Origin: Candidatus Beckwithbacteria bacterium GW2011_GWC1_49_16
Lineage (GTDB): Bacteria; Patescibacteriota; Microgenomatia; UBA1400; CG1-02-47-37
Reading direction: 5' to 3'
DNA length: 64,000 nucleotides
Assembly (NCBI GenBank): GCA_001029675.1
Contig: CP011210.1
Span: 581,663-645,662, forward strand
Shown here: positions 3,065-56,184 of the stretch, piece by piece
Numbering within the stretch: position 1 is the stretch's first letter
Layout: each line of letters starts with the position of its first letter
The notes under the pieces: generated by a model
The model's database searches: none
What the model saw: the letters and a program-made list of their open reading frames with translations, nothing else
What the model was told of the DNA's origin: nothing
Program-made: the position numbers and the translations under genes

Positions 3065-3065
3065 A

Positions 3066-3884: not shown

Positions 3885-3896
3885 TAATCCTCTTAT

Positions 3897-7467: not shown

Positions 7468-7476
7468 GAGTTGAGT

Positions 7477-7839
7477 TTAGCTTTTGGCGACCACGAGAAT
7501 GCCGGAAACGATAATCATCAAACCCAGCCAGCGCAAGGGGGGGACGGTCTCTTTGAGCACCAACCAAGATAAAAAGACGGTGACGACGTAGGAGGCGGCC
7601 ACCAAAGGGTAGACAAAAGAAAGCTTTTCCCGGGATAAGACCACCAGCCAGATAAGCGCGCTGACAAAATAAAAAAACAACCCCAACAAAACCAGCGGGT
7701 TTAAAAAAATCTTGATAAACTCTGAAACCACCGAAGTCTTGGTGAGGCTGATTTCGCCTACTTGGTTCATGCCGCTTTTTAGAATCAGTTGGCCGATAGC
7801 GGCCACGATTACAGGCGTAAAAATCAAGACAAATCTCAT
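7477..7839 (-). CDS. small 4-TM membrane protein, EamA/SMR-like (candidate ArnE/ArnF- or GtrA-type lipid-linked sugar flippase subunit)
   Basis: 120 aa, four hydrophobic segments. Adjacent to the Wzx gene and to UDP-GlcA-modifying enzymes. Confidence 0.4.
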   Translation of the reverse strand: MRFVLIFTPVIVAAIGQLILKSGMNQVGEISLTKTSVVSEFIKIFLNPLVLLGLFFYFVSALIWLVVLSREKLSFVYPLVAASYVVTVFLSWLVLKETVPPLRWLGLMIIVSGILVVAKS

Positions 7840-7864
7840 CTAGTATGATAGTATCACATTAGTT

Positions 7865-8854
7865 ATGGGCAATAAAAGTGCGTTGGTTACCGGCGGTGCC
7901 GGCTTTATCGGTTCCCACCTTTGCGAGGTGCTTTTAAGAAAAAAGTATCGCGTGATTTGCGTCGATAACTTTTTGACCGGCGACCGGCAAAACGTCAAAG
8001 CCCTAATGGATCAAAGCGGTTTTTTGCTGGTAAATGCCGATGTGACCAAAAAACTGCCCGAGGTGCTTTTGGACGAGCCGGTCGACTATGTTTATCATCT
8101 GGCCAGCCCGGCCAGCCCCAACGAGAAAAGCCCGATCTCCTATTTAAGCCTGCCTCTGGAGACTATGGACGTTAATTCTTTGGGGACGAGAAGGATGCTT
8201 AGATTATCCAAAAAGAAAAAGGCCCGCTTTGTTTATGCTTCGACCTCCGAAGTCTATGGCGACCCCAAGGTCCATCCCCAAACCGAAGATTACTGGGGCA
8301 ACGTCAACCCGAGAGGGGTGAGAGCCTGCTACGACGAAAGCAAACGCTTCGGCGAAGCCTTGACCATGGTTTACGTCAGGAAATTCAAGCTCGACGCCAG
8401 GATCGTCAGGATTTTCAACACCTATGGGCCGAGGATGGACTTGAGAGACGGCCGGGCCGTAGTCAACTTTATTACCCAAGCTTTGAAAAACGAACCGCTG
8501 ACGATCCACGGCAAGGGCAGCCAAACCAGGAGTTTTTGTTACGTCGACGACTTGGTCAAAGGCTTAATCAAGCTAGCGGAAACCGACAACCTGACCGGAG
8601 AAGTAGTCAACCTGGGCAGCACCGAGGAGCTGACGGTGCTTGACATGGCAAAAAAAGTCAAAAGAGCTACTAAGTCTAAATCAGAATTTACCTACACCAA
8701 GCGGCCTGATGATGATCCAAGGAAAAGAAGGCCCGATATTTCCAAGGCAAGAAGGCTGTTGGGTTGGACGCCGAATGTGGGCTTTAGTCAGGGCTTGAAA
8801 AAGACTATTGCCTATTTTGAAGCCAAACTCAGAGATGAAACGGTCACGGCCTAA
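7865..8854 (+). CDS. UDP-glucuronate decarboxylase (UXS / ArnA C-terminal domain-like extended SDR)
   Basis: TGGAGFIGSHLCEVLL...VICVDNFLTGDRQNV closely matches UDP-xylose synthase. YDESKR catalytic Tyr/Lys motif. Confidence 0.7.
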   Translation: MGNKSALVTGGAGFIGSHLCEVLLRKKYRVICVDNFLTGDRQNVKALMDQSGFLLVNADVTKKLPEVLLDEPVDYVYHLASPASPNEKSPISYLSLPLETMDVNSLGTRRMLRLSKKKKARFVYASTSEVYGDPKVHPQTEDYWGNVNPRGVRACYDESKRFGEALTMVYVRKFKLDARIVRIFNTYGPRMDLRDGRAVVNFITQALKNEPLTIHGKGSQTRSFCYVDDLVKGLIKLAETDNLTGEVVNLGSTEELTVLDMAKKVKRATKSKSEFTYTKRPDDDPRKRRPDISKARRLLGWTPNVGFSQGLKKTIAYFEAKLRDETVTA

Positions 8855-9803
8855 AACGGTCCTGGTGACCGGTAACGCCGGCTTTATCGGCTCGCATTTA
8901 ACCGAGAAGTTGCTGGCGGATAACTACCGGGTAATCGGGGTAGACAACTTTAACGACTTTTACGACCCCAAGGTCAAGGAAAAAAATGTCGCTGCGGCGA
9001 AAAAAAATCCCCGCTTCAAACAGTACCGGACAGACATTACCGACTTTGGCGCTTTAGAGCGGATTTTTGAGGAAAGCGAGATTGACTTGGTCGTCCATCT
9101 GGCGGCGCGGGCGGGAGTCAGGCCGTCTTTGGTTTATCCCCGGCTGTATCAAAAAGTCAACGTCGAAGGAACGGTTAATTTGTTAGAGCTGACCCGCAAG
9201 TTTGAGGTCGGCAGGTTTATCTTTGGTTCGTCCTCCAGCGTCTACGGCGAGCAAAAAAAAGTCCCCTTTTCCGAGACCGACCCGGTCAACCGACCGGTCA
9301 GCCCCTACGCGGCCAGTAAAAAATCAGCCGAGATGTTTTGTTTTGCCTACTCAAAGCTGTTTGGCATCAAGACCACGGTGTTGCGGTTTTTTACCGTTTA
9401 TGGCCCCCGGGGGCGGCCGGACATGGCGCCGTATATTTTTGCCAAGGCGATTCTGAAAGGGGAGCCGATCACCCGCTATGGCAAAGGCGACACCAGCCGC
9501 GACTATACTTATGTCGACGATGTTGTGACCGGAATTTTGGCGGCGGTTAAAAAGCCCTTTGATTATGAAGTGATCAACCTGGGCCACAACCGGCCGGTGA
9601 AGTTAAACCAGTTTATTGCTACCATCGAGAAAATAGCCGGCAAAAAAGCCAAAATCTTTGAGCAGCCGCGCCACCCGGCAGACGTCAGCCAAACCTTTGC
9701 CGATATTGGTAAGGCCAAAAAACTGCTCGCCTGGCAGCCAAAAACCGATCTAGAAACAGGTCTAAGACGCTTCCTCAACTGGTACTCTAACTCACAACCA
9801 TAA
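8835..9803 (+). CDS. UDP-glucuronate 4-epimerase family NAD-dependent epimerase
   Basis: VLVTGNAGFIGSHL...VIGVDNFNDFYDPKVKEKNV signature (DNFNDYYD..LK) of the Cap1J/GlaKP-type epimerases. The track ORF starts at 8808; an internal ATG at 8835 is the more likely start. Confidence 0.6.
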   Translation: MKRSRPKTVLVTGNAGFIGSHLTEKLLADNYRVIGVDNFNDFYDPKVKEKNVAAAKKNPRFKQYRTDITDFGALERIFEESEIDLVVHLAARAGVRPSLVYPRLYQKVNVEGTVNLLELTRKFEVGRFIFGSSSSVYGEQKKVPFSETDPVNRPVSPYAASKKSAEMFCFAYSKLFGIKTTVLRFFTVYGPRGRPDMAPYIFAKAILKGEPITRYGKGDTSRDYTYVDDVVTGILAAVKKPFDYEVINLGHNRPVKLNQFIATIEKIAGKKAKIFEQPRHPADVSQTFADIGKAKKLLAWQPKTDLETGLRRFLNWYSNSQP

Positions 9804-9812
9804 CATCTAGAT

Positions 9813-9824
9813 TGACGATCGTCA
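9813..9824. other. perfect 12-bp palindrome TGACGATCGTCA in the 30-bp spacer between convergent genes
   Basis: Flanked by the short inverted repeat CATAACA/TGTTATG. Possible bidirectional terminator or protein-binding site. Confidence 0.3.
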
Positions 9825-9833
9825 CTCAAATTG

Positions 9834-10526
9834 TTATGTTGATAAAGCTTCCGGCAACTCACCGGGCTTTAATTTCTCTCTTCTACCCCACCACTTAAAC
9901 TTTTTCAGCCTGTCTACCACCTTAGCCTGGTGGCGCCAACCGCTCCTTTTAAGGTGGGTTAAATGAAGATACCAGGTATCGACAAACTCCAAGCGTTCGG
10001 GTTGATCCTGAATCGACCGGCCATTTATGGTGTAGGCCTCATCAGGATAGGAGCCGATAACTTTAAGCCCGGGCAGATTCTTGATCGCCCTAATGTTTAA
10101 ATTTCCGCTCCAGGGACCGATGCGGTAGCGGCCAGATGATTCAGGTAAGTAGTGGTAGACGTCGCCGATGGCGTTTCTGGTGCGGTTGACTAAAGCCAGG
10201 GTGTTTATTGAAGCATTCTCCGCGGCTTTGATTAATTGAATTAGGTTTTTTTCGGGCCAAACCTCGTCGCCGTCTAAAAGCAAGATCCAAGGGGTTTTGG
10301 TAGCGGCTATTTGCTGGTTTCTTAATTTCACCAGTCCGTTTCTGCCTGCCGCACCTTTTTGACTGAAGTCAATCTTGTTTGAGTTGATCGACTTAATCTC
10401 CTTTACGGTAGCGTCGGTGGAGCCGGTATCCCAGACGAGGAAACGGTCAACGTGGTCGATGACCGATAAAAGAGAAGGCTTAATAAACCTCTGTTCGTTT
10501 TTAACGATGGTGTGACTGGTAATCAT
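9834..10526 (-). CDS. glycosyltransferase family 2 (small)
   Basis: TIVKNEQRFI...VWDTGSTDAT...LLLDGDEVW motifs. Confidence 0.6.
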   Translation of the reverse strand: MITSHTIVKNEQRFIKPSLLSVIDHVDRFLVWDTGSTDATVKEIKSINSNKIDFSQKGAAGRNGLVKLRNQQIAATKTPWILLLDGDEVWPEKNLIQLIKAAENASINTLALVNRTRNAIGDVYHYLPESSGRYRIGPWSGNLNIRAIKNLPGLKVIGSYPDEAYTINGRSIQDQPERLEFVDTWYLHLTHLKRSGWRHQAKVVDRLKKFKWWGRREKLKPGELPEALST

Positions 10527-11950
10527 TTAGCTGAAATTACTTTAAATATCTTAATCGAGCTTTTGTTCTCCGGGCGGAAGACTTGAAACAGGAGTTCGGC
10601 GGACAAGCTCGCGGGGACTGTCTCGGCGACGTTTAACGCCAGAAAAACTTCTTCTTCATTCTCGAGGGCGTTGAGTACGCTTTGGCGGGCGGCCGGGGCC
10701 AACACCATATCGTCGGCAAGACTAACGACCGTCATGCCGTGGTCGGGCCAAAGGTAAGGCAGGCCGGTTTTAACCAAATCGTCCGACTCGGTGATTAAGA
10801 TCTCCGGAGGAAAAGTTTTTAAGTAGTCCACCACTTCGGCTAAGCCGTAGCCGGAGGGCCAGCCGGTGACATACTGCCAGCGCTCGATTTCCGGGAGCGG
10901 AGCTTTTTTGAGATCAGTAACGATGACAAAGTCGGTAACCAACGGCTGCCAAAAGACTGCCGCTATCAACACCGCCCCCAAAAGGTGGGACAGTTTTTTT
11001 AAAATTGCCTCGAGGCCGACGGCGGCAAAGAACAAACTTAAGACAAAAACATAGAGCAAGTATCTGGGAAACAAGATTTTGGCAAACAAAACCACAAACA
11101 AGAGCATGGGGATAATGGTGACCAGTAAAATTTTCCAAAAGGGGCGATAGTTAAAATAAGCGACCACGGCGCCGACGAGAACCAGGAGTAAAACCGGCCA
11201 AGTTAGATATTGCCAGCTCCACCAGGCCACCTGGATAAGGTTGGGGCGGATTGAGTCTAAAGCTTGATTTACCGATAACAGAAAAACCTGGCGTTTGCCG
11301 ATAAAACTCGTAAGCGACCCGGTGGCAAGATAAAAAATTACGCTTAAGCCGGGCAAAGCTGCCGCCCAAAAGTCGTGGCGGTTAAGCTTGGGACGAAACC
11401 AAAAGTAGGCCAGAATGGCGCTACCCGGCAACAACCAGGCAGTGGATTTAGTAAGTAACCCCAACATCAAACCCAGGCCGGCAAGATATGCCCCACGGGT
11501 TTTATTTTTTATCAGCCTCAAGCTTAAACCATAAACTACCAGCAAAGCGGCCAAGGTCACCGCCGAGTCGCCGCGCAATCCTAAGCGGTCGTGGATTAAA
11601 ACTATCGGTGAGGTCAAGATTAAAAAGAGGCTTAAGTAACCAATCAGGGGTGATTTAAACCAGGTTTGAGCTAAGCGGAAAACAACAATCAGGCTCAAAC
11701 CGCCAAAAAGAGCGGCGGTCAGCCTTAGGCTTAGCAGAGGGTCCTTGGCGATTAAGTTTATTAGGGTAGCCACCCAGGTAGTAAAAGGCGCCCAGCCGAA
11801 CTCTTTTAAAGGTAGCAGCCACTGGTTAAGGTCGGCGCTGATGGTGGCCACCCAGCGGGTATAGAGCAGCTCGTCTAAAAAAGGAGGGAAAGATAAAACT
11901 CTAACCAGCCGGGAAACGACAAACAGACCAACTAAAACTAGTGCCAACAT
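10523..11950 (-). CDS. ArnT/PMT-like GT-C membrane glycosyltransferase
   Basis: 475 aa, polytopic. PPFLDELLYTRW DE motif in the first loop. Confidence 0.65.
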   Translation of the reverse strand: MLALVLVGLFVVSRLVRVLSFPPFLDELLYTRWVATISADLNQWLLPLKEFGWAPFTTWVATLINLIAKDPLLSLRLTAALFGGLSLIVVFRLAQTWFKSPLIGYLSLFLILTSPIVLIHDRLGLRGDSAVTLAALLVVYGLSLRLIKNKTRGAYLAGLGLMLGLLTKSTAWLLPGSAILAYFWFRPKLNRHDFWAAALPGLSVIFYLATGSLTSFIGKRQVFLLSVNQALDSIRPNLIQVAWWSWQYLTWPVLLLVLVGAVVAYFNYRPFWKILLVTIIPMLLFVVLFAKILFPRYLLYVFVLSLFFAAVGLEAILKKLSHLLGAVLIAAVFWQPLVTDFVIVTDLKKAPLPEIERWQYVTGWPSGYGLAEVVDYLKTFPPEILITESDDLVKTGLPYLWPDHGMTVVSLADDMVLAPAARQSVLNALENEEEVFLALNVAETVPASLSAELLFQVFRPENKSSIKIFKVISAK

Positions 11951-11977
11951 AGGTGTTTTAGGCTAGTATACTAAATT

Positions 11978-12724
11978 ATGGCAGGGATAATGAGGCAGGA
12001 TCTGTATCGCGAACTTTTTGAAGTGGAAGATCACCATTGGTGGCACAAGCAGAAAAGGCTGATGGTTCATAGCCTAATTGAAAGAAACTGCCGCCAGCCT
12101 GGACGGGTTTTAGATCTGGGCGCCGGCAGCGGCAAACTGCTTGATGAATTGAAACAAAAAGGCTGGCAAGTGGCTGGCGTCGACGCGGATGAAAAAGCGG
12201 TCAGGCTGGCTCGCAGACGAGGCCTAAAGCTGGTTAAACTTAACCAGAATCAAATAAGGCTGCCCTTTACTGACAACAACTTTGACCTGGTGGTGTCACT
12301 TGACACCCTGGAGCACGTTAAAACCGATGCGGCGGCGATTGGGGAAATGAAACGCGTGGTAAAACCAGAAGGGTTGATTTTGATCACCGTGCCGGCTAAC
12401 CCTTGGCTTTTTTCTTACTGGGACAAAATGCTGGGGCATTTTAGGCGCTACTCGAAAACCAGCCTCGCCCGGCTGATCAAAACTGCCGGCTTGAGGCCAG
12501 TTTTTGTCAGCTTCTTTTTCACCTACTTACTCCTGCCGGTAAGCCTAATCCGCTGGTTTAGAAATCGACTCAAACTAACGGCTGTTTCTGACTTTCAGCT
12601 CACGCCGGTAAACTTCTTAGTAGCGCCACTAATGGCGTTTTTGGGTTTTCTGGAAAGGCAAGTGGTAAAATTTACCCCGCTGCCATTTGGCCTGTCTTTA
12701 ATATGCCTTATCAAAAAAAAGTAA
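11978..12724 (+). CDS. class I SAM-dependent methyltransferase
   Basis: VLDLGAGSGKLLDEL motif I and D-x-V...LDTLEH motif. Confidence 0.7.
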   Translation: MAGIMRQDLYRELFEVEDHHWWHKQKRLMVHSLIERNCRQPGRVLDLGAGSGKLLDELKQKGWQVAGVDADEKAVRLARRRGLKLVKLNQNQIRLPFTDNNFDLVVSLDTLEHVKTDAAAIGEMKRVVKPEGLILITVPANPWLFSYWDKMLGHFRRYSKTSLARLIKTAGLRPVFVSFFFTYLLLPVSLIRWFRNRLKLTAVSDFQLTPVNFLVAPLMAFLGFLERQVVKFTPLPFGLSLICLIKKK

Positions 12725-13434
12725 TCTGGCCCAAACAATTATCGCTGGTCTTGCCGGCATACAACGAAGCGGGGCGCTTGCCGCGGGCCCTGACCATCTG
12801 CCACCAGTGGAGTAAAAAATTTTCCGGCTGGGAGTTTATTTTTGTCAACGACGGTTCAAGCGACGCCGGCGAAAGCCTAATTCTCGCTAGTAAGTTTAAA
12901 CTCATATCTTACCCAACCAACCGGGGGAAGGGTTATGCGGTCAAAACCGGAGTAGCGGCAGCCACTAAACCGTTGGTGCTGGTCGCCGACATAGATTTTT
13001 CTACTCCCCTGTCTGAAATTCCCAAGTTTTATCAGGTTATCAGAACTGGCGCTGACGTCGCCTCGGGTTCGAGAAAGCTGGCTGGCGCCAAACTTTTAAA
13101 GCTTCAGCCAAAGATGCGTCAGTGGCTGGGCGAGCAGTTTACCCATCTGACTAACCTCTGGCTTGGCATGCGAGTGAGTGACTTTACCTGCGGTTTTAAA
13201 CTCTTTCTCGCCCCGGCAGCCAAAAAGTTATTCGGTTTGTCGCGGATCTCCCGCTGGGGCTATGACGCCGAGATTTTGTTTTTGGCCAAAGTCCTCGGCT
13301 ACCAACTGGTCGAGGTGCCGGTTACCTGGGAAAACGACGAAAGGACCCGGGTAAATATCTTACTGGACGTGCTGCGATCGCTGGGCGATTTAATCGCTAT
13401 CCGCTGGAACCAGCTAAGGGGAAAATACGCTTAG
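12703..13434 (+). CDS. polyprenol-phosphate glycosyltransferase (GT2, DPM1/ArnC-like)
   Basis: LSLVLPAYNEAGRL...IFVNDGSSD...VADIDFSTP. Shares an A8 tract with the upstream gene in a 22-nt overlap. Confidence 0.7.
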   Translation: MPYQKKVIWPKQLSLVLPAYNEAGRLPRALTICHQWSKKFSGWEFIFVNDGSSDAGESLILASKFKLISYPTNRGKGYAVKTGVAAATKPLVLVADIDFSTPLSEIPKFYQVIRTGADVASGSRKLAGAKLLKLQPKMRQWLGEQFTHLTNLWLGMRVSDFTCGFKLFLAPAAKKLFGLSRISRWGYDAEILFLAKVLGYQLVEVPVTWENDERTRVNILLDVLRSLGDLIAIRWNQLRGKYA

Positions 13435-15089: not shown

Positions 15090-15094
15090 AAGTC

Positions 15095-15150
15095 GAGCTT
15101 ATAGGTTTTAGTGGAGTTGTCAAGCAGGTAGGCGGTCATGGCATCGAAAC
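15095..15150. repeat. direct repeat copy A (about 56 bp, roughly 52/56 identical to 16317-16372); a remnant 3' end of the GT-C gene
   Basis: agcttataggttttagtggagttgtcaagCaggtaggcggtcatggc... Encodes a remnant peptide ...AMTAYLLDNSTKTYKLDL*. Confidence 0.7.
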
Positions 15151-15205
15151 TTTCTTGGGCTAGTACCATAAATCTATTTTAAACTAAAATACTCAAACAA
15201 TTAAT

Positions 15206-15727: not shown

Positions 15728-15742
15728 ATGTGGTTAGTTATT

Positions 15743-16258: not shown

Positions 16259-16306
16259 AAACCTAGAGTATTATAGGGTATAGAGTCAAATGGGGACAAG
16301 CGCGGT

Positions 16307-17815
16307 TTAGAATGAAAGCTTATAGGTTTTAGTGGAGTTGTCAAGAAGGTAGGCGGTCATGGCGCCAAACTGCTGGCGGGCGATGACCGGCAAGTCGGAG
16401 GTCAAGGGTTTGTCGGTAAGCAGAAGTATTCGCTCGGGCATTTCTGGTACAGGCGGCCGGGCGTAGAGCCAGAAGAAGTTGGAGTCCATGAAGGAAATAA
16501 CCGGCGGATTATCGGTCAGTTCAAACAGGTAGCGCAGGCCGTTTTCGCGGTGGCATTTGCTGACAGAGTCCAGGGCAAAGGGTTGGCCGGATAACTCACT
16601 TTGGGCCCAGGAGACCAGTTGGTTTTTGTAACTTAAACCGTAAGGGTGATGGGCGCGGCTGACCTGAAAAAGGTTTAAAGCGACGATGATAGCGGTTAAG
16701 GTATAAGTAAGGGAACGGGGCAGTTTGGTTAAAACCCAAGCGGTGATCAAGGCAAAAACAGGCAGCAGGCCGGCAAGGTAGTGGTCGAACAAAGAAAAAC
16801 CCAAAACACCAAAGAGAACGACGCCGACAAAATAGGTTAAAAGCAAAACCACTATGGCTTTGACGGCCGGTTTTCGGCTGGTGAATTTTTTGACGATAAA
16901 CCAAACCAGCAAGGCCGCGGCCGAAACGACCAAGAGCCAAGACAGCTGGCGCTGGCGACCTTGGGCAAAAGGAAAACAGTAGGAATAAAGCTCGGCCAGA
17001 CTGGTTTGGGGAGAATACCAGAAACGGGCAAAACTCCGCGGCAAAAGCAACAAGCCGTCGATGATTCTTTCAACCGCAAAACCCTTGGCAGAAAGATTGG
17101 TAAACAAACGGGACACGCCTCTCAAGTTTTCCCAGCCGTGGCGAAGATCAAACGCCAATAAAGGGGCGACAAATAAACCTAAGGACACCAACAACGAACC
17201 TTTGACTGCCCGGCGGTTGAAGCGGCGGCGGAAAATAAAGTAGGTTAACAAAATTGCGGCCAGGAGCATCAGGTTAGAGGGATCGGCGCTGACGGCAAAA
17301 ACCAACACCAACCCTAACCAAAAGTATGGCCAAAAAGGTCCGACCTTTTTGAATTTGAGCTTGGTCAATAAAAGCAGCGCCAGGGTAGTCAGCAAGGGAT
17401 TAAAAACCAAAGGCCAAAAGTGGCGGTCGAAAAAGACGGCGGTAAAAGAAGTGGCATAAAGTAAAACCGCGATTAAAGCAAATTCTTGGGTAAAAAGTTT
17501 TTTAGCCAAAGAAAAAAGGCTTAGTAAAGTAGCCAAGCCGATGGCGGCGGCGACTACTCCCCAAGCGATGGGGTTAAAACGGGACAAGGGCAAAAATAGG
17601 GCGGAGAGGTAATAAAAATAGGGCGGCAGGTGGACTTGTAAGGGGCTGATGCCGCCGATAAGAAAGGGCCTGCCCAAAACAAATAAGCCCCAGCCGCGAA
17701 AAGCCAGCAAAGCCTCATCCATGGTGAAGTGGAAAAGCGGAGTTAGTTTAAACAGGCGCAGGAACAAGCCTAAAGCAATCGCGGCGGAAAGCCAAAGCTG
17801 GGGTTTTAATCTCAT
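16307..17815 (-). CDS. ArnT/PMT-like GT-C membrane glycosyltransferase
   Basis: 502 aa, polytopic. HFTMDEALLAFRGW DE motif. Confidence 0.65.
   Translation of the reverse strand: MRLKPQLWLSAAIALGLFLRLFKLTPLFHFTMDEALLAFRGWGLFVLGRPFLIGGISPLQVHLPPYFYYLSALFLPLSRFNPIAWGVVAAAIGLATLLSLFSLAKKLFTQEFALIAVLLYATSFTAVFFDRHFWPLVFNPLLTTLALLLLTKLKFKKVGPFWPYFWLGLVLVFAVSADPSNLMLLAAILLTYFIFRRRFNRRAVKGSLLVSLGLFVAPLLAFDLRHGWENLRGVSRLFTNLSAKGFAVERIIDGLLLLPRSFARFWYSPQTSLAELYSYCFPFAQGRQRQLSWLLVVSAAALLVWFIVKKFTSRKPAVKAIVVLLLTYFVGVVLFGVLGFSLFDHYLAGLLPVFALITAWVLTKLPRSLTYTLTAIIVALNLFQVSRAHHPYGLSYKNQLVSWAQSELSGQPFALDSVSKCHRENGLRYLFELTDNPPVISFMDSNFFWLYARPPVPEMPERILLLTDKPLTSDLPVIARQQFGAMTAYLLDNSTKTYKLSF
16317..16372. repeat. 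direct repeat copy B (the intact 3' end of the GT-C gene 16307..17815)
   Basis: agcttataggttttagtggagttgtcaagAaggtaggcggtcatggcgcc... In frame with ...AMTAYLLDNSTKTYKLSF*. Confidence 0.7.
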
Positions 17816-18354
17816 TGAAGCTTCTTTTTAACTTGGGCCGGGACGCCGGCGACCATGACGCTGGCGGGGACAGATTTTCTGACCACGGCTCCGGCAGCAA
17901 CCAGAGAATTTTTCCCGATGGTCACGCCCGGCAAAATGACGCTGGCGACGCCAATAGCGCAACCGGATTCCAGGGTGGTGGTATAAACCTTTTTGGGGTA
18001 ATGCTTTAAAAGCGGGTGGTCGGAAAAGCCGACCGAGTGGTGCGACAAGATGACGCTGGCGGCAGAAACGGTCACTTGGTCACCTAAAACCACTTTGCCG
18101 GCCAAGTCGATGGTAGTCCTCGGCCCCAGATAACAGTCTCTGCCGAGAGTCAAGCCGGCCAGGCCGGTGCGGTCGAGGTTAAAGAACCCGGCCTTATCCA
18201 CGACACAGTTTTTACCGATTTTAGCCCCGCCCAGCCTTAACCACCACACCCTTAGAGGCGAATAAGGCAAGGCCCCAAATACCAGATCCCAGGCTCCAAA
18301 CACTAAATACTTGAAAATTCTTTTCAGACCGATTTCTTTAATGATTTTTGCCAT
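17812..18354 (-). CDS. hexapeptide-repeat (LbH) O-acetyltransferase, WcaF-like
   Basis: Left-handed beta-helix hexapeptide repeats (IGKNCVV, LGDQVTV, IGKNSLVAAGAVV). Confidence 0.75.
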   Translation of the reverse strand: MAKIIKEIGLKRIFKYLVFGAWDLVFGALPYSPLRVWWLRLGGAKIGKNCVVDKAGFFNLDRTGLAGLTLGRDCYLGPRTTIDLAGKVVLGDQVTVSAASVILSHHSVGFSDHPLLKHYPKKVYTTTLESGCAIGVASVILPGVTIGKNSLVAAGAVVRKSVPASVMVAGVPAQVKKKLQ

Positions 18355-19060
18355 GGCGGTAAGAATAGCTTAATAGGTTTTTTAGATAAATTAAAGTATC
18401 AGGGACAAGTCTCACGGTCGAGGTTTTGTCGGTGCGGCGGACAAAGGCGGTGGGAATCTCGACCACCTTGAGTCCGGCCCGGAAAGCCAAAGTCATGATC
18501 TCGGTGTCAAAAAACCAGCCGGAGTGGTAGGACTGCTTTAAAAGCGGCATCAGTTTGGCTCTTTTGAAAAACTTGTAGCCGCCTTCGGTATCCTCAAAGG
18601 GCAGGCCCAACAAAGCTTTGCGCAGTAAAACATAACCTTTGCTGCCCAGCCAGCGGTGTAAGGTTTTTAACTTAAAGTCGTAGATGCGCCAGGCACTGGC
18701 GAGGTCGGCGCCGGCTTCGATGGCGGCGAAAAACTTAGGCAGGTACCATTCGCCCACTTCCAGGTCGATGTCGATATAGCCGACGATCCTGCCCAGGGCT
18801 TTTTTGAAACCGTCCTTGACGGTTTGGCCCCGGCCGAGGTTTTTTTTGTGGAAAATGGCGGAAAGGTTTTTTCGCGGGTAACGCTTGATCATTTTGGCAA
18901 TCAAGGTTCTGGTACCGTCTTGGGACTTATCGTCGACAAAAATTATTTCCCAGGTATAGTCGGTTTGATCCAAGGTGCGGATGATGCGGCTAACCGAATC
19001 TTCGAAAATTTGCTCTTCGTTAAAACAAGCCAAAATCAAGCTGACGTCGTATTTATCCAT
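18338..19060 (-). CDS. polyprenol-phosphate glycosyltransferase (GT2, DPM1-like)
   Basis: VSLILACFNEEQIF...IFVDDKSQDGT...IDIDLE motifs. Confidence 0.7.
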   Translation of the reverse strand: MDKYDVSLILACFNEEQIFEDSVSRIIRTLDQTDYTWEIIFVDDKSQDGTRTLIAKMIKRYPRKNLSAIFHKKNLGRGQTVKDGFKKALGRIVGYIDIDLEVGEWYLPKFFAAIEAGADLASAWRIYDFKLKTLHRWLGSKGYVLLRKALLGLPFEDTEGGYKFFKRAKLMPLLKQSYHSGWFFDTEIMTLAFRAGLKVVEIPTAFVRRTDKTSTVRLVPDTLIYLKNLLSYSYRHGKNH

Positions 19061-19079
19061 AGCTCATGTAAAATTATAC

Positions 19080-23242: not shown

Positions 23243-24027
23243 TTTTTGATCCTGACGATCATGGAGTAACCGATCGGAAAGGCCGACAGGGCATAATCCC
23301 AGTATTCGGCAATGAAACCCTTTTTATCTCTATATAATCGGCTTAGTTGTCCTACGGCTAAACTTAAAAGGTTGTTAACAATGTAAATTGGATAGATAAT
23401 TTTAAGCGTTCCGAATAAAATCCGGACTACGATATTGCTGAAAATAAATAGCGAGGCAAACAAATTGTTGCTGCCCCGAAGCAAAATAATCTTATCCCGT
23501 TTAAACAGGGACTGAAGTTTGTATTTAGTAAAACGATTAAAGTCGTGGGGAATGCCGTGCAAGGGGAAAATAAACGGAATGGATAAATAGACCAAAGCTT
23601 GATTTTTAGCCACCCGTTTTAACTCGCTGACCACTTGGTATTCATTATCACAATGCTCCAAGACTTCCGAAAGTATAATTACGTCAAAAACATTATCTTT
23701 AAAGGGTAATTGTTCGTTGTTGGCAATGACGTCGGCATAAGAATTTAGATCCAAGTCTACACCAATATATTGATCGTTGGGGAAAAATGCTTGATATGGC
23801 TTGTAGCCACAGCCAAGGTCTAAAATCTTTAGAGGGCTGGCTTTTTTACCAACCAACTCTAACATTCGTTCAAATGTTTCTCTAAAACTTAAGGTCATGA
23901 TATAGGTGTAATCGTAGAGTCTGGGCTTGAGCCGCTCTCTGATAATTGAAGGGTTTTTGGGCAATTTTCCCCGGCCGCGCCTTACCCGATAGTTTTTGTT
24001 TTTTAAAAGCGTTTCAATTTTTGCCAT
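23239..24027 (-). CDS. class I SAM-dependent methyltransferase
   Basis: ILDLGCGYKPY motif I; DVIILSEVLEH. Confidence 0.65.
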   Translation of the reverse strand: MAKIETLLKNKNYRVRRGRGKLPKNPSIIRERLKPRLYDYTYIMTLSFRETFERMLELVGKKASPLKILDLGCGYKPYQAFFPNDQYIGVDLDLNSYADVIANNEQLPFKDNVFDVIILSEVLEHCDNEYQVVSELKRVAKNQALVYLSIPFIFPLHGIPHDFNRFTKYKLQSLFKRDKIILLRGSNNLFASLFIFSNIVVRILFGTLKIIYPIYIVNNLLSLAVGQLSRLYRDKKGFIAEYWDYALSAFPIGYSMIVRIKK

Positions 24028-25721
24028 AGTCGATCAATTATATAACCGATAGTTAATCCAATAAACGGCAAAGACTGGGTCATCGAACGGTACTCGACTA
24101 AATTCTTGGCCGTGAGGAAAAAATGGGGAATTTCCAAAAAGAAAACTAAAACCGGAATGTACCGTAATGCCTTTCTCCTTAACATTAACCAGGCGCCGGC
24201 AATAAATAAAACCAAGCCCGTTAGATTATCTTTAAAATAAAGGCCGCCAAAGGTTTTTCTTACACCTGCCAAAGTGGAAATAATTAAATCAGGAAGAGTG
24301 TGAAGTTTAAAAAAATAAGTAAAGGCAGAAATTTCTGGCCCCTGAAACGGATTCATCCGCTCTTCTTCTTTGGTAGGGAATCCCGGTTGCCCAGAGAATT
24401 CAACATTCACATTCCATTTTAAATGATTTGCCTCGGAATAGTTCCAGGTATTGTAAGTTTTAAGATTGGTAATAATAATCGGAGCGGCAATTAAAAATGT
24501 TGTTAACATTATCACCATTCCTGATTTTAATTTTTTTCTGGCAATCATAAATATCAATGCCAGGCCGATTAGCTGGACGATTGAATGAAGCCGCAAATAA
24601 ATGGCAAAAATTATGGCTAAAACTAAAATAACCTTATTCCGATTTTTTTTGAGGTTAGACTCAAACAGCCAGAAAGAAAAAATTAAGATAACAAACGTAA
24701 ACGCCGGATCTCTCAGCCCTCGCGTTGACAAATCGATAAGATAAGGGTGGACGGCAATAAATACCGCGGCTGCGGCGGCGCCGACAACTGAACCGATCTT
24801 TTTGCCATAGGTATAAGTTAACCCAATCGTCAACCAATGAAACACCAGGCTCGATAGCTTTATCGCCATCTCCGAACCATAACCAAACAGTTGCCAAAAA
24901 GTAAGAATAATTAACACGTTTAGACTTTCTTTATTTAGGCAATAATTTCCCGCCAAGGCTGTTGTCAAGTCCTGAGAAAGAAACTTTTCTGTCTGGCTAG
25001 TCAAACAATTGATATCGCTGTCAAAAGCCCGGTAGCGATTTTCAAACAAGCTTTTCCAGGATAAATGCATCCCTAAAAATATCACGGCAAAGACTATCAA
25101 AAACTCAATAGCAATCTTTTTTTTGGGCCGGATAATGAATAGTATCGGGAAAAAAGTAAACAATCCCAGTAAAATCAATGGCGGCATTTTGATTTCTCGC
25201 TGGTAATGCATTAAGTGGAAATCATAAAGGATTACTGCCGGCAAACCGTTAACCTCTTTGTTAGTCGCCTCAATCTTAATCCAAAAGTGCTCGCTATTGG
25301 CAATATATTGATTCAAATCTAAAGGCGGAGCAAAATGTTGAAACCGATTATTTTCAACCAACATTTCCCAGTCCTGTTGATTGGTAGAAATGCTGACTTT
25401 ATTGCTACCGGGGTCAGGATGTGTCAATGAAAGTTGTAATACCGCCACTTGGGCACCGGGTGGTCGAGTAAACTCATACACGACCAGTCCCTGAGTTTGC
25501 GGGTCTAACGATAAATCAATCTTGTCTTCCTCAGACCAACCAGAATATTCAACGGCTTCTGTTCGCAGTTTGTCAAAGTTTCTCCAGCGTCTGCCCATCT
25601 TTACTTCTCCAACTAAGTTCTTCCCCTGCATCGAATTAAATGAATCTTCCAGCCTTGAACGGAAAATAAAAAAATTGAGAAGTAAGACTAAACTGATTAA
25701 AATAACTTTGACTACTTTCAT
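24003..25721 (-). CDS. polytopic membrane protein with a roughly 170-aa N-terminal extracytoplasmic domain (possible Wzy-like polymerase or GT-C); function unknown
   Basis: 572 aa. Signal-anchor, then about 10 TM helices. Confidence 0.35.
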   Translation of the reverse strand: MKVVKVILISLVLLLNFFIFRSRLEDSFNSMQGKNLVGEVKMGRRWRNFDKLRTEAVEYSGWSEEDKIDLSLDPQTQGLVVYEFTRPPGAQVAVLQLSLTHPDPGSNKVSISTNQQDWEMLVENNRFQHFAPPLDLNQYIANSEHFWIKIEATNKEVNGLPAVILYDFHLMHYQREIKMPPLILLGLFTFFPILFIIRPKKKIAIEFLIVFAVIFLGMHLSWKSLFENRYRAFDSDINCLTSQTEKFLSQDLTTALAGNYCLNKESLNVLIILTFWQLFGYGSEMAIKLSSLVFHWLTIGLTYTYGKKIGSVVGAAAAAVFIAVHPYLIDLSTRGLRDPAFTFVILIFSFWLFESNLKKNRNKVILVLAIIFAIYLRLHSIVQLIGLALIFMIARKKLKSGMVIMLTTFLIAAPIIITNLKTYNTWNYSEANHLKWNVNVEFSGQPGFPTKEEERMNPFQGPEISAFTYFFKLHTLPDLIISTLAGVRKTFGGLYFKDNLTGLVLFIAGAWLMLRRKALRYIPVLVFFLEIPHFFLTAKNLVEYRSMTQSLPFIGLTIGYIIDRLWQKLKRF

Positions 25722-28796: not shown

Positions 28797-28801
28797 AGTC
28801 T

Positions 28802-29581: not shown

Positions 29582-29604
29582 CGATATTATACTAGGATTA
29601 GCTC

Positions 29605-31446
29605 ATGTGCGGCATTGCCGGAATAATTAATCTTAACGGTCAGCCGGTGGAAGAAAAAGAAATTGGCTTGATGTGTCAGGCGATCGCCCATCGAGGGCCG
29701 GACGATCAGGGAATTTGGATCAAAGGACCGGTTGGTCTTGGTAACCGCCGCTTGTCGATTATTGATTTGAGTTCTGCCGGCAACCAACCGATCCACAACG
29801 AGGATAAAACTGTCTGGATCACTTTTAACGGCGAGATTTACAACTTTAAGGACTTGAGAAAAAACTTAGTCAAAAAAGGCCATAAGTTTTATTCCCAGAC
29901 CGATACTGAAGCCATCGTCCACCTGTGGGAAGAATATGGCCCTAACTGCGTTAAGTTTTTGCGGGGCCAGTTTGCTTTTGGCTTGTGGGATGACAAAAAA
30001 AAGATACTTTTTTTGGCCCGGGATCGGCTGGGGCAAAAACCTTTAAAGTATTATCTGACGGACAAAGAAATCATTTTTGCCTCAGAGCTGAAAGCGATTT
30101 TAAAAGTCAAAGGGGTTAAAAAGGAACTAGACCCGATAGCGGTGGATCATTTTTTCAGTTTGGAAGCGGTGCCGGCGCCTTTGACCGGCTTTGTCAACAT
30201 CAAAAAACTGCCGGCCGCCTCTTACCTGGTGGTTAAAAAGGGCCAGGCGACGATCAAGCGCTACTGGAAATTCAAGTTTCTTCCCAAACACAAACTGGGT
30301 CTTGACGAGTTGAACCAAGAGGTGGTGAGACGTTTGACCGAGGCAGTTGAACTGCGGTTGGTGGCTGACGTGCCGGTGGGGGCGTTTTTATCGGGTGGGG
30401 TCGACTCGTCTTCGATAGTAGCCTTGATGAAAAAACTGGGGCACAAAAACTTAAACACCTTTTCTGTCGGCTTTGAGGAAAAAGAGTTTAGCGAGTTGAA
30501 GTACGCCCGAATGGCGGCGAAAAAGTTTGGCACCAGTCACCACGAGATACTTTTGCGGCCGGATAGTTTTTCCTGGCTAGAAAAGCTGGCTTACCATTAC
30601 GAAGAGCCCTATGGCGACCCGTCGGCTTTACCGACGTACTTGGTCAGTAAGCTGGCGGCCAAGAAATTAAAAGTGGTGTTAAACGGGGACGGGGGCGATG
30701 ACATTTTTGCCGGCTACCAGCGCTACCAAAAGTTTGGGGCGATAAATTTAATCAGCCGCTTACTGCCAAACTGGTCGAGGCGCCTGGCTAAAAATCTAAT
30801 GCCGCCGACGCTGGCCGATCTTTTAAGCCAGCCGGGTTTTGGAGAATACGCGGCCGCTTACCTGGGTTTGACTTCGCCGGTCAACTTTAAGAAACAGCTT
30901 TACTCAAAAGAATTTTATATGCGAATCGATCCCCTATCGGGACAAAAATTGATCTTAAAACAAAAACTGCCGGGCTTGACCCCCCTGGACAACGTCTTGC
31001 TGGCAGACCTAAACATCTACCTGAGTCAGGTGCTTTTGCCTAAAGTGGATATTGCCTCAATGGCCCATGGCCTGGAAGTGCGCTCACCGTTTCTTGACCA
31101 TATTTTGGTCAACTTCGTCAATCAAATTCCGTCGGAGTTGAAGCTAAGGCGGGGCGTGGGCAAGTATATTTTTAAAAAAGCAGTCGAGGGCTTAGTGCCT
31201 GACGAGATTATCAACCGGCCCAAAATGGGTTTTGGATTTCCGCTGGGAAGCTGGCTTAGAAACCAATGGCAAGACGGGGTTAAAGATGTGCTTTTGAATG
31301 AAAAAGCCTTGTCTAGGCAGTACCTAAACCAAGAAGTCGTCAAACAAATGATAGAAAAACCGCTTGAGGGGGAACACTACGACCGGAGATTGTGGCGGGT
31401 GTTGATGTTTGAACTGTGGCTGAAGAGTTATTTTGGCAGGAAGTAA
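29605..31446 (+). CDS. asparagine synthase (glutamine-hydrolysing) family amidotransferase (WbpS/PseA-like)
   Basis: MCGIAGIINLNG N-terminal Ntn Cys2 motif; SGGVDSS PP-loop. Confidence 0.85.
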   Translation: MCGIAGIINLNGQPVEEKEIGLMCQAIAHRGPDDQGIWIKGPVGLGNRRLSIIDLSSAGNQPIHNEDKTVWITFNGEIYNFKDLRKNLVKKGHKFYSQTDTEAIVHLWEEYGPNCVKFLRGQFAFGLWDDKKKILFLARDRLGQKPLKYYLTDKEIIFASELKAILKVKGVKKELDPIAVDHFFSLEAVPAPLTGFVNIKKLPAASYLVVKKGQATIKRYWKFKFLPKHKLGLDELNQEVVRRLTEAVELRLVADVPVGAFLSGGVDSSSIVALMKKLGHKNLNTFSVGFEEKEFSELKYARMAAKKFGTSHHEILLRPDSFSWLEKLAYHYEEPYGDPSALPTYLVSKLAAKKLKVVLNGDGGDDIFAGYQRYQKFGAINLISRLLPNWSRRLAKNLMPPTLADLLSQPGFGEYAAAYLGLTSPVNFKKQLYSKEFYMRIDPLSGQKLILKQKLPGLTPLDNVLLADLNIYLSQVLLPKVDIASMAHGLEVRSPFLDHILVNFVNQIPSELKLRRGVGKYIFKKAVEGLVPDEIINRPKMGFGFPLGSWLRNQWQDGVKDVLLNEKALSRQYLNQEVVKQMIEKPLEGEHYDRRLWRVLMFELWLKSYFGRK

Positions 31447-32852
31447 ATTTCCACGCCGTAGTCGTCCAGGCTGTCACCGGCCAGTTTTTGGGCCCGAGTC
31501 TTGATGTAGCCTATGGTTTCTGGTTCAAGGCGGACGGCTTTTTCTTTTTCCCAAGTGATAAAAGTGCCGGGAGCCAGGGTGGCCGCGTCGGTGGCGGTTA
31601 AATCCAAGATTTGGGTTTGGCCGGGCAGGTCTTTTAAGTAGTAGTCTCTGACTTGGACACCGGCGATTTGGTCGCCCGCCTCAAAACGGTCAAGAATCAA
31701 CTGGTAGGCAGACCTTAGCTGGGATCTGTCGTCTCGACCAAAATACAAATACCTGACGCCTCCGGCCAAACGCCAAAGGGAGAAAAAAATCAACGCCGAC
31801 CAAGTCAAAACGATCAAAGGCCGGCTGCGTTCAAAAAGAAGCTTGGCGGAGATAAGCGCCAAAAGTAAAATCAATGGCAGCAGGTGGGCCAGGTAAGCTG
31901 ACGCCGGTGGCAGTTTACTGAAAAAAATTAAAAAGACCAAGCTGGTAAAAACAATTAGGCTCAAGTAGGCGGTTTTGGGGCGAGTTACCAGTTTTGGCAA
32001 AGCCAAAACCACCAGGACAAACTCCGGCATAAAACTTAAATACTGCCAGTAAGGTTGATGGAGAGAAATAAAGTAGGGGTGGAAAAAGTTTATTCCCGAG
32101 TAAAGACTAAAGCCTGCTAGCAGCAGCAGCGCGGCCAAAAGCCACCAGAAAAGCTTCCGGCCATAAAAGAAACTGTAGATCAAAAGCGCTGCCGGCAAAA
32201 GCAGAGTCAAAAGCTGGAGCCAGTAGGAAAAAAGCAACAATAACCCGGCAGCCAGCCAGAGCTTGGGGTTTTTGGGTTTTTTGATCAACTTGAAAATAAA
32301 GTAGACCGCACCCAAGAAAACCAACCCAAACAGAGAATAGAAACGAGCGTAGCGGCTTAGATCGATCAGGGGGAAAGAGACGGCGACAAGAAAACTCAAA
32401 AGCAAAGCCAGTTTTTTTGAGCCGGTGAAAAAGCGGGCAAAAAAGTAGCTAAAACCAACCAGGAGAGTGCCGGACAGAACCGCGATAAGGCGAGAAGTAA
32501 ACTCGGAGATACCAAAAGTGTAATAGACGCCAGCCAGAGCGGTTAAGTAGGGCCAGGCCCGAGCGTAGTGAGTATCGCTGGGAGCGTCTTTGACAAAATC
32601 CCACAAATAAATTTCGCTGACTAGGTTGGGGATGGTTTCGTTGTTTAAAACCAGAGCCAAAAATCTTGACTTAAGGGTCTTAGGGGTGTGACGGCAGTTG
32701 GCGCTATCCTGCCAGCAGTAAGTCAAGTAGGCGGCGGCTTTAAGGCTGGTGAACTCTTCCTCTTTAAAATCGGGCTGGCCAACTCTAAATAATCTTAAAA
32801 ACAAAGCCAAAAGGGTGATGGCGATGAGGATCAGTTTGGTGCTTCTGGCCAT
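31428..32852 (-). CDS. ArnT/PMT-like GT-C membrane glycosyltransferase
   Basis: 474 aa, polytopic. N-terminal LFRVGQPDFKEEEF acidic loop. Confidence 0.55.
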   Translation of the reverse strand: MARSTKLILIAITLLALFLRLFRVGQPDFKEEEFTSLKAAAYLTYCWQDSANCRHTPKTLKSRFLALVLNNETIPNLVSEIYLWDFVKDAPSDTHYARAWPYLTALAGVYYTFGISEFTSRLIAVLSGTLLVGFSYFFARFFTGSKKLALLLSFLVAVSFPLIDLSRYARFYSLFGLVFLGAVYFIFKLIKKPKNPKLWLAAGLLLLFSYWLQLLTLLLPAALLIYSFFYGRKLFWWLLAALLLLAGFSLYSGINFFHPYFISLHQPYWQYLSFMPEFVLVVLALPKLVTRPKTAYLSLIVFTSLVFLIFFSKLPPASAYLAHLLPLILLLALISAKLLFERSRPLIVLTWSALIFFSLWRLAGGVRYLYFGRDDRSQLRSAYQLILDRFEAGDQIAGVQVRDYYLKDLPGQTQILDLTATDAATLAPGTFITWEKEKAVRLEPETIGYIKTRAQKLAGDSLDDYGVEIYFLPK

Positions 32853-38799: not shown

Positions 38800-38844
38800 G
38801 GTAAAATTATATACTGGCGTGAGCCAAAAACTAAATTCAGTGAC

Positions 38845-45821: not shown

Positions 45822-45834
45822 AAACCGGATTGTA

Positions 45835-56168: not shown

Positions 56169-56184
56169 TTGTAGAATAGTAATT

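Follow-up and report, generated by a model that had tools for sequence, protein, structure and literature searches.

A glycan-biosynthesis island in a Candidatus Beckwithbacteria genome and its candidate lipid-linked glycosylation systems

We analysed a 64-kb stretch of DNA (64,000 nucleotides, hereafter the window) from Candidatus Beckwithbacteria bacterium GW2011_GWC1_49_16, a bacterium of the Candidate Phyla Radiation (CPR; Patescibacteria, Microgenomates) with a genome of 1.05 Mb. Our starting point was the interval 7477-13434 of this window, which an initial annotation had read as a module of the ArnA/B/C/E/F/T type, i.e., akin to the enzymes that make 4-amino-4-deoxyarabinose (Ara4N) and transfer it to lipid A. 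The window is filled by 59 open reading frames (ORFs) of at least 100 aa, with nearly no intergenic space and no tRNA. Pfam and NCBIfam scans covered all 59, and by Pfam, nearly all belong to glycan biosynthesis. Every gene that the initial annotation had listed is an intact ORF found where it had been placed and belongs to the family broadly assigned to it, most of these genes lying far outside the interval. Moreover, glycan genes run on for at least 10 kb past both window ends. The upstream 10 kb carry four GT4 and two GT2 glycosyltransferases, a hexapeptide transferase, a Wzy_C protein, a PMT/PMT_2 glycosyltransferase of the GT-C fold, and ManC; the downstream 10 kb carry HisF/HisH-like genes, a GT2, methyltransferases, a DegT protein, and a Wzx. 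Hence, we consider these genes as one island of at least 84 kb, or about 8% of the genome. In our best reading, it encodes several multi-component transmembrane glycosylation systems, and the interval 7477-13434 is one segment of it.

The interval and its conserved gene block

The interval contains the following genes:

7477..7839, minus strand: small EamA/DMT half-transporter, ArnE/ArnF-like (120 aa, about four transmembrane segments)
7865..8854, plus strand: UDP-glucuronate decarboxylase of the UDP-xylose synthase (UXS) type (AKM79383; extended short-chain dehydrogenase/reductase, SDR; from PDB matches and motifs)
8835..9803, plus strand: predicted UDP-glucuronate 4-epimerase, forming UDP-galacturonate (from PDB matches and carboxylate-binding residues)
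9834..10526, minus strand: soluble GT2 of 230 aa, other than the polyprenyl-phosphate type, translationally coupled to GT-C 10523
10523..11950, minus strand: GT-C fold glycosyltransferase (PMT_2; Pfam 46 bits, AlphaFold2 model)
11978..12724, plus strand: class I S-adenosylmethionine (SAM) methyltransferase (Pfam), overlapping GT2 12703 by 22 nt
12703..13434, plus strand: soluble DPM1/ArnC-type polyprenyl-phosphate glycosyltransferase, a GT2 (PDB and NCBIfam)

The gene at 7477 heads a tightly packed minus-strand operon, which runs through position 579 and past the window start. Downstream of it, the operon comprises:

6205-7467, minus strand: Wzx/MOP family protein (Polysacc_synt_3, 72 bits)
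5177-6208, minus strand: GT4
3897-5192, minus strand: GT-C (PMT_2)
3066-3884, minus strand: GT2
1688-3064, minus strand: GT-C (PMT_2)
579-1691, minus strand: GT4

Two enzymes of the interval are predicted to act on UDP-glucuronate (UDP-GlcA). The decarboxylase had been described as UXS- or ArnA-dehydrogenase-like; the first term is appropriate, the second is not. Indeed, its best PDB matches are human UXS1 (4gll, 2b69) with 331 bits, an E-value of about 5e-98, and 50-52% identity, while the next-ranked family reaches only 155 bits. ArnA is not among its PDB matches with E<1e-20, and the NCBIfam ArnA model gives 95 bits for a cutoff of 777. In the alignment with human UXS1, the protein keeps the UXS motifs GGAGFIGSH, ASTSEVYGDP, YDESKR, and QTRSF (i.e., the GxxGxxG, TSE, YxxxK, and loop Arg elements). 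By similarity, it is a plain UXS, far from ArnA. The second enzyme, whose gene overlaps that of the decarboxylase by 20 nt, has as best PDB matches 5u4q (258 bits) and the Bacillus cereus UDP-GlcA 4-epimerase BcUGAepi (6zl6, 202 bits). In BcUGAepi numbering, it carries SSSS at 125-128 in place of the T126-S128 cluster, SPYAASK, and the conserved Y149 and K153. The counterparts of T178 and R185 lie in its motif RFFTVYGPRGRPDMA, residues which FTVYGPRGRPDMA holds in the BcUGAepi alignment. The Ser/Thr cluster, T178, and R185 bind the carboxylate of GlcA or GalA (PMC12338863). With these residues intact, the protein is, as the initial annotation had proposed and as far as its sequence tells, a UDP-GlcA 4-epimerase. 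Pro85, Gln211, and Thr280 of BcUGAepi were also considered as specificity markers; Pro85 and Gln211 were dropped, being unconserved even in the Klebsiella homolog. The interval is thus predicted to supply two donors derived from UDP-GlcA, UDP-xylose (UDP-Xyl) and UDP-galacturonate (UDP-GalA).

The small membrane protein at 7477 matches Pfam EamA (32.7 bits) and, end to end, the NCBIfam ArnF model (50 bits, E 3.6e-13, under the 99-bit cutoff); ArnE gives 32 bits, also below its cutoff. It had been called ArnE/F- or GtrA-like, and we keep ArnE/F and discard GtrA. This protein is a candidate flippase for polyprenyl-phosphate-monosaccharides. The adjacent gene bears out the Wzx-like flippase noticed at the outset.

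The soluble GT2 at 12703 has ArnC and dolichol-phosphate-mannose synthase (DPMS) as its sole PDB matches, and scores 69 bits with the NCBIfam dolichyl-phosphate hexose transferase model. GT2 9834 is of a different kind: its best PDB matches, which are weak, are GmaR and SunS, two protein/peptide glycosyltransferases.

We compared the window with related loci, labelled L002-L017, and with one JGI locus known by its Pfam content only. The block 579-13434 is kept whole and in order in relatives down to 37% identity of GT-C 10523. It reads GT2 12703 with its methyltransferase, GT-C 10523 with GT2 9834, epimerase with UXS, and then EamA, Wzx, GT4, GT-C 3897, GT2 3066, and GT-C 1688. The gene order of 579-7467 is the same in L002, L003, and L010; EamA orthologs are syntenic in L002, L003, L005, L006, L010, and L011; and the pairing of methyltransferase 11978 with GT2 12703 is kept in L003, L005, and L011. 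Where their source is named, homologs of GT-C 10523 come from Patescibacteria only. An IS200-type Y1 transposase, which the window lacks, lies between GT2 9834 and the epimerase in L002 (10108-10752), L004 (1171-1815), and the JGI locus. These insertions are consistent with module shuffling between genomes.

Modules elsewhere in the island and their recurrence in relatives

Outside this block, the window holds further genes of the same families, several of them grouped in modules:

32873..34075, plus strand: ArnB-like DegT aminotransferase (PDB: ArnB), beside module B in relatives and displaced here
18338-19060, minus strand: module B, polyprenyl-phosphate-type GT2 (family profile against PDB)
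17812-18354, minus strand: module B, hexapeptide acyltransferase (operon 16307..19060)
16307-17815, minus strand: module B, GT-C (PMT_2; AlphaFold2 model)
34056, 35807, and 37207, minus strand: module C (34056..40342), three GT-C-type membrane proteins, 34056 sub-threshold
38845-39789, plus strand: module C, ArnC/GtrB-type GT2 with C-terminal transmembrane helices, divergent from these three genes
39755-40342: module C, methyltransferase adjoining GT2 38845
45835, minus strand: module D (43000..47385), membrane protein with DUF6798 (Pfam)
44637, minus strand: module D, RfbH/PseC-like DegT (NCBIfam)
43688, minus strand: module D, GDP-fucose-synthase-like SDR (NCBIfam)
43000, minus strand: module D, AglJ-like GT2 (NCBIfam)
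24003..25721, minus strand: probable GT-C, sub-threshold (PMT_2 23 bits; hhalign 92% against the 10523 family)
31428..32852, minus strand: multi-transmembrane protein, weakly GT-C-like (Agl23 25.7 bits; hhalign 84% against the 10523 family)
60286..61851, plus strand: GT-C (PMT_2; Pfam), at the end of a nonulosonic-acid cluster

Three polyprenol-phosphate GT2s had been announced (12703, 18338, and 38845), and all three fall in the DPMS/ArnC clade. The family profile of GT2 18338 gives 63 bits with DPMS, 51-57 with three ArnC entries, and 49 with GtrB, against 37 for a generic GT2; its top seven PDB matches are all DPMS, ArnC, or GtrB. GT2 38845 reaches 167 bits on the ArnC model (cutoff 529) and does carry the DGDLQDDP motif noted at the outset, at residue 98. 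GT2 43000, AglJ-like with 88 bits, is a fourth candidate. In each of modules A (that of the interval), B, and C, a GT2 of the DPM1/ArnC type is accompanied by at least one GT-C, EamA and Wzx standing in the conserved block. The module C block is kept in L004, L007, and L010, and module D in L003. We also considered module D as an Arn-like unit and rejected it, its SDR being GDP-fucose-synthase-like and its DegT RfbH/PseC-like. SAM methyltransferases are repeatedly coupled, by translation or adjacency, to polyprenyl-phosphate-type GT2s (11978-13434, 38845-40342, and 6534-7195 in L005 and L006), which suggests that lipid-linked sugars or glycan termini are methylated. At the edge of L004, a Polysacc_deac_1 gene (21068-21203), of the family that includes ArnD, adjoins a 38845-like GT2 and its methyltransferase.

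Seven proteins pass the Pfam gathering score for PMT_2 (1688, 3897, 10523, 16307, 35807, 37207, and 60286). The initial count of at least six GT-Cs is thus respected, with a partly different membership: 31428, which had been listed, has no Pfam match, and 35807 and 37207 had been omitted. Two or three more proteins are weakly supported. Membrane protein 34056 (PMT_2 21 bits, under the Pfam threshold) and 45835 (DUF6798 only) are not counted as confirmed GT-Cs because their hhalign comparison with the 10523 family is not significant. The GT-Cs of the window are mutually very divergent, 35807 and 37207 (34% identity) forming the sole pair detectable by BLAST; they are not recent duplicates. Their N-termini show first-loop DE or D motifs, and in both families that were aligned, the DE pair does not vary (D26 E27 in the 10523 family, D33 E34 in the 16307 family).

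Structural models were used for two of these proteins. The sequence profile of the 10523 family finds only ArnT in PDB, with an insignificant E-value of 8.2. The AlphaFold2 model of 10523 (pLDDT 94.5) has ArnT (5ezm) as its top Foldseek match (E 1.8e-7, TM-score 0.61), and its further significant matches (STT3, PglB, AglB, AftD, and Pmt4) are exclusively GT-C enzymes. The model of 16307 (pLDDT 93.9) matches ALG12 first (TM-scores 0.59/0.61) and ArnT next (0.57/0.54), followed by AglB, STT3, AftA, and PglB. Both models thus point to GT-C fold enzymes. The ArnT/PMT character attributed to these proteins holds for the PMT_2 domain and the fold, but their assignment to the ArnT family is not justified, 10523 having ArnT as its best match and 16307 standing about as close to ALG12 as to ArnT.

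The DegT announced as ArnB-like at 32873 does stand closest to ArnB, its top four PDB matches being all ArnB (260-281 bits), against 222 bits for the next family and 149 for PseC; PglE is not among its PDB matches. It scores 359 bits with NCBIfam ArnB, under the cutoff of 631. Here, this gene and module B stand 13.8 kb apart, and in both the window and L011, GT4 and SDR genes take up the place beside module B that the DegT has in relatives. Indeed, orthologs of the DegT (61-80% identical) are abundant in Patescibacteria, and in all nine related loci examined (L004-L010, L017, and JGI), it lies directly beside the ortholog pair of GT2 18338 and hexapeptide transferase 17812, followed by a GT-C wherever the contig is long enough. 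In L004, L005, L006, and L010 (checked by sequence) and in the JGI locus (by Pfam only), this DegT cassette lies 2-10 kb from orthologs of UXS, epimerase, and EamA. In L005, L006, and L010, DegT, GT2, GT-C, hexapeptide transferase, EamA, UXS, and epimerase are all found within about 7-10 kb. The order in L005 and L006 is DegT, GT2, GT-C, hexapeptide transferase, methyltransferase, EamA (the 7477 ortholog), GT-C (the 16307 ortholog), and Wzx, with UXS and epimerase 2-3.5 kb away on the opposite side of DegT. In L010, DegT, GT2, hexapeptide transferase, GT-C 16307, GT2 9834, epimerase with UXS, and EamA, Wzx, and onward form one contiguous array.

A contig scan with the single GT-C 16307 protein returned no relative, and a GTDB-wide scan was made with the alignment of the GT2 18338 family. 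It returned true orthologs (43-72% identity) in only ten species-level genomes: Microgenomates-type metagenome-assembled genomes (MAGs), one MAG labelled Elusimicrobia, and two DPANN archaea. In nine of these ten loci, the GT2 and hexapeptide genes are direct neighbours. Eight of the ten have an aminotransferase nearby; it is ArnB-like in L008, L009, L010, and L017, and L012-L015 have another type of DegT instead. The cassette of L017 (Candidatus Iainarchaeum, DPANN; 8381-20607) is minimal: next to a 487-aa multi-transmembrane protein with no Pfam match, it has a hexapeptide transferase, a GT2, and an ArnB-like DegT, the last two being 43% and 51% identical to 18338 and 32873, respectively. 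It abuts two giant surface proteins of 902 and 1774 aa, the former with CARDB and CarboxypepD_reg domains. This arrangement, the only clue to an acceptor, hints at surface-protein glycosylation and at cassette transfer between CPR bacteria and DPANN archaea.

Other genes complete the picture of the island. Beside module B, an NTP_transf_2 gene and an adjoining 171-aa ORF with no Pfam match occupy 15206-16258, and in L007, a toxin-antitoxin pair of NTP_transf_2 and HepT-like proteins (9377-9986) is inserted between DegT and GT2; both look like mobile toxin-antitoxin cassettes at rearrangement points of the island. The GC content drops to 0.405 at 20001-28000, from about 0.50 in the flanks. This segment, which carries GT4s, a methyltransferase, the sub-threshold GT-C, and a transglutaminase-like protein, may be strain-variable or horizontally acquired. 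Genes for an ABC-2 type Wzm/Wzt exporter (28068-29581) are adjoined, within 28068-31446, by AsnB, an asparagine-synthase-like amidotransferase of 613 aa that may amidate uronic acids or otherwise modify the glycan; the ArnB-like DegT of L006 has an AsnB homolog as its neighbour. Three proteins that resemble CotH kinases and have N-terminal transmembrane or signal segments are encoded at 13431-15089, 41756-43000, and 48187-50391. The last is a fusion with a NosD/beta-helix domain, the second neighbours a VTC-domain protein and a DUF4956 membrane protein (41025-41759 and 40339-41073), and a CotH ortholog is kept between modules A and B in L002 and L011. The genes at 51413-60289 look like a full set for making a nonulosonic acid, either legionaminic or pseudaminic in type. 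They encode NeuB, a weak DegT-like protein, a 2-epimerase, a hexapeptide transferase, a DegT, a PseB/LegB-like dehydratase, a GFO/IDH oxidoreductase, a CMP-transferase, an SDR, and a full-length 10-transmembrane EamA transporter, GT-C 60286 being next in line; this cluster is kept in L007. Finally, 61837-63651 encodes a 604-aa protein with weak similarity to Epimerase_2 and to CDP-glycerol glycerophosphotransferase (Glyphos_transf), which may be a teichoic-acid-like polymer synthase and, as such, a candidate for building an acceptor.

Proposed glycosylation routes and alternative readings

From the gene families, the folds, the conservation of catalytic residues, and the clustering observed across genomes, we consider it probable, with moderate confidence, that the island carries out multi-component lipid-linked glycosylation that includes an Arn-like amino-sugar branch and is directed to acceptors other than lipid A. 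In this scheme, cytoplasmic enzymes would tailor nucleotide sugars, the UXS-type enzyme converting UDP-GlcA to UDP-Xyl and the 4-epimerase converting it to UDP-GalA. Small soluble DPM1/ArnC-type GT2s would then put single sugars on polyprenyl phosphate, the ArnE/F-like EamA, and possibly the adjacent Wzx too, would flip the lipid-linked sugar, and divergent GT-Cs would pass the sugars to extracytoplasmic acceptors such as cell-wall glycopolymers, S-layer proteins, or other surface proteins. The general architecture that had been proposed, from nucleotide sugar to GT2-made polyprenyl-phosphate-sugar, small flippase, and GT-C, thus holds. The acceptors are likely to be several and different from lipid A, as also anticipated, given the CPR host, the divergence of the GT-Cs, and the presence of at least four polyprenyl-phosphate-type GT2s. 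Lipid A is an implausible acceptor in a CPR bacterium, and the window contains no lpx gene.

The core of the Arn-like system would lie outside the interval and consist of DegT 32873, GT2 18338, hexapeptide acyltransferase 17812, and GT-C 16307. The UXS-type enzyme would release a UDP-4-keto-pentose made from UDP-GlcA, which DegT would convert to a UDP-4-amino-4-deoxypentose. The hexapeptide transferase would produce its N-acetyl derivative, the amine being trapped as an amide in the stead of the ArnA formyltransferase reaction. GT2 would then form the polyprenyl-phosphate-sugar, EamA would flip it, and GT-C would transfer it. Over the island as a whole, the Arn-like logic does exist, since DegT, acyltransferase, GT2, GT-C, EamA, and the UXS-type decarboxylase recur clustered. 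The specific 4-aminopentose chemistry is a tentative proposal to which we give less credit than to the scheme as a whole. The aminopentose relay of the initial annotation is not supported in the form it was given, but such a branch, fed by a UXS-type enzyme, stays plausible because the DegT cassette lies near UXS, epimerase, and EamA in relatives. In its favour, too, whether a UDP-GlcA decarboxylase yields the 4-keto sugar or xylose is not readable from its active site (PMC10338323).

Several observations weigh against an aminopentose. The high similarity of the decarboxylase to UXS is one of them, and UXS enzymes normally keep hold of the 4-keto intermediate. Hexapeptide transferase 17812 has equal scores with N- and O-acetyltransferases, the proposed partners are spread over 25 kb in this genome, and no UDP-glucose dehydrogenase (Ugd) is encoded in the window or in the 10 kb on each side. 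No Arn-like component reaches its NCBIfam equivalog cutoff, so that no gene can be named an Arn ortholog. UXS is absent from the flanks fetched around the DegT cassette in L007, L008, and L017, and in L012-L015, the GT2-hexapeptide pair stands beside a different DegT. The amino sugar need not, therefore, come from UDP-GlcA.

These observations lead to an alternative, rather unlikely in our estimation, in which no aminopentose is made. UXS and epimerase would feed Leloir GT2 and GT4 enzymes and/or polyprenyl-phosphate-Xyl or -GalA synthases, in the manner of the Rgt system described below, and DegT would use another keto-sugar, its module yielding an N-acetylated 4-amino-4,6-dideoxyhexose or another amino sugar. 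The grouping of the decarboxylase with plain UXS, which the initial annotation itself had listed as part of what would refute its proposal, agrees with this, as do the UXS-epimerase pair of L003, which has neither module B nor an ArnB-like DegT in its fetched flanks, and the occurrence of the GT2-hexapeptide pair without UXS and with other DegTs (L012-L015 and L017). The DegT itself argues otherwise, its four best solved relatives being ArnB, with PseC at 149 bits against 281 and PglE unmatched; so does the presence of UXS, epimerase, and EamA 2-10 kb from its cassette in five loci. A PseB-type 4,6-dehydratase at 56185 could provide a keto-sugar, but it has its own adjacent DegT (55012). An extra SDR beside DegT in L004 raised a PglF/E/D-type (bacillosamine) origin of the DegT substrate, which we keep only within this alternative because that SDR is not conserved in L005-L010 or elsewhere.

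Taken literally, the initial proposal would make the interval 7477-13434 itself a homolog of the ArnA/B/C/E/F/T operon for Ara4N, which we hold to be very improbable. The ArnE/F-like EamA, the ArnT match of the 10523 model, and the presence of ArnC among the matches of GT2 12703 do recall that operon. Nevertheless, aminotransferase, formyltransferase, and ArnD are all missing from the interval; no formyltransferase domain is encoded by the ORFs of at least 100 aa of the window or of the 10 kb on either side, and no ArnD-type deacetylase (Polysacc_deac_1, PF01522) in the same region. The decarboxylase is UXS-type instead of ArnA-CTD type, the second SDR, a predicted UDP-GlcA 4-epimerase, has no role in Ara4N synthesis, and the partners of DegT in relatives are orthologs of 18338, 16307, and 17812, not of 12703 and 10523. 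It is also improbable, to a lesser degree, that many of the GT-C proteins are polymerases, ligases, or oligosaccharyltransferases working on undecaprenyl-diphosphate-oligosaccharides in Wzx/Wzy or ABC-transporter pathways. The Wzx of the operon, the Wzm/Wzt exporter, the Wzy_C protein just upstream of the window, the appearance of STT3, PglB, and AglB among fold matches, and the lack of solid PMT_2 support for 31428, 45835, and 34056 all fit such pathways. On the other hand, characterised PMT_2 members, a family whose Pfam score seven proteins pass, use polyprenyl-phosphate-monosaccharide donors, and every conserved module pairs its GT-Cs with a DPM1/ArnC-type GT2. Moreover, Pfam finds no phosphoglycosyl transferase among the window ORFs, none of which matches the STT3 or PglB models.

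The genes themselves were already deposited with generic annotations ("Glycosyl transferase family 39", "UDP-glucuronate decarboxylase"), and the class of mechanism is familiar. Our search for literature on CPR bacteria or Patescibacteria together with ArnT, GT-C, or mannosyltransferase found nothing relevant. In the literature searched, there appears to be no account of GT-C systems concentrated in a CPR genome, of ArnB-like DegT, acyltransferase, GT2, EamA, and GT-C as a conserved cassette with a link to a UXS-type decarboxylase, or of this cassette in DPANN archaea. CPR bacteria are tiny, mostly uncultured episymbionts, whose surface chemistry presumably mediates host attachment and phage evasion. 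Devoting at least 8% of the DNA to one glycan island with about ten GT-Cs points to an elaborate capacity for lipid-carrier-based extracytoplasmic glycosylation, of which none of the papers retrieved gives a description. A broader and rather doubtful idea is that a compact cassette (ArnB-like aminotransferase, acyltransferase, soluble polyprenyl-phosphate GT2, EamA, and GT-C, fed in bacteria by the UXS-type enzyme), common to CPR bacteria of the Microgenomates type and some DPANN archaea, builds a lipid-linked N-acyl-4-aminopentose for surface proteins or wall polymers, independently of lipid A. Such a lipid A-independent Arn-type pathway would possibly reflect the ancestral use of this chemistry. 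If an aminopentose is made, Ara4N-type chemistry extends beyond lipid A modification, and a small set of soluble enzymes (UXS-like, DegT, acyltransferase, and GT2) makes it directly testable in vitro. If not, the locus is a useful catalogue of divergent GT-Cs and polyprenyl-phosphate GT2s, ordinary in principle.

Comparison with known systems

The Arn (Pmr) system follows the same logic as the proposed branch, with a UDP-GlcA decarboxylase, an ArnB-like aminotransferase, an N-acylation (which in the island is our inference), a polyprenyl-phosphate GT2, a 4-transmembrane DMT-type flippase, and a GT-C, and the corresponding parts are clustered in relatives of the island. However, the decarboxylase of the island is UXS-type instead of ArnA-CTD type, a hexapeptide acyltransferase takes the place of the formyltransferase, ArnD is lacking, and a single EamA gene replaces the ArnE/ArnF pair. 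Moreover, the GT2 of the cassette has no transmembrane helices, the GT-C resembles ArnT at the fold level only, and the host is a CPR bacterium, presumed to be devoid of lipid A.

The Rgt system of Rhizobium associates a UDP-GlcA 4-epimerase (LpsL), a polyprenyl-phosphate-GalA synthase (RgtE), and GT-Cs (RgtA-D), its acceptors being lipid A and the core of the lipopolysaccharide. The island likewise combines a predicted 4-epimerase with polyprenyl-phosphate-type GT2s and PMT_2 GT-Cs, a likeness seen in the shared PMT_2 domain and the presence of the epimerase.

For the release of the keto-sugar, a precedent exists in the calicheamicin and AT2433 pathways, where the UXS-like enzymes CalS9 and AtmS9 hand a 4-keto-pentose to DegT-family, pyridoxal phosphate-dependent transaminases, which form a 4-aminopentose (PMC10338323). 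These pathways differ from the island in that they make natural products with Leloir glycosyltransferases, without lipid-linked donors or GT-Cs.

Finally, three-component glycosylation is documented in Gram-positive bacteria and in Citrobacter, with variants in which the GT-A enzyme is soluble, the flippase is of the Wzx type or serves several lipids, or the GT-Cs are highly divergent, and GtrA/B/V, CsbB-GtcA-YfhO, GacI/J/K/L, and the Citrobacter PPPRS-MATE-GT136 system obey the same scheme as the island, from GT-A to flippase to GT-C (PMC8035078, PMC11127046). The candidate flippase of the island is of the EamA/ArnE-F type instead of the GtrA type. The island also stands apart by its unusual density, with at least four GT2 synthases and at least seven to ten GT-Cs in a 1-Mb genome, by the pairing of its GT2s with SAM methyltransferases, and by its donors, which are probably derived from UDP-GlcA.

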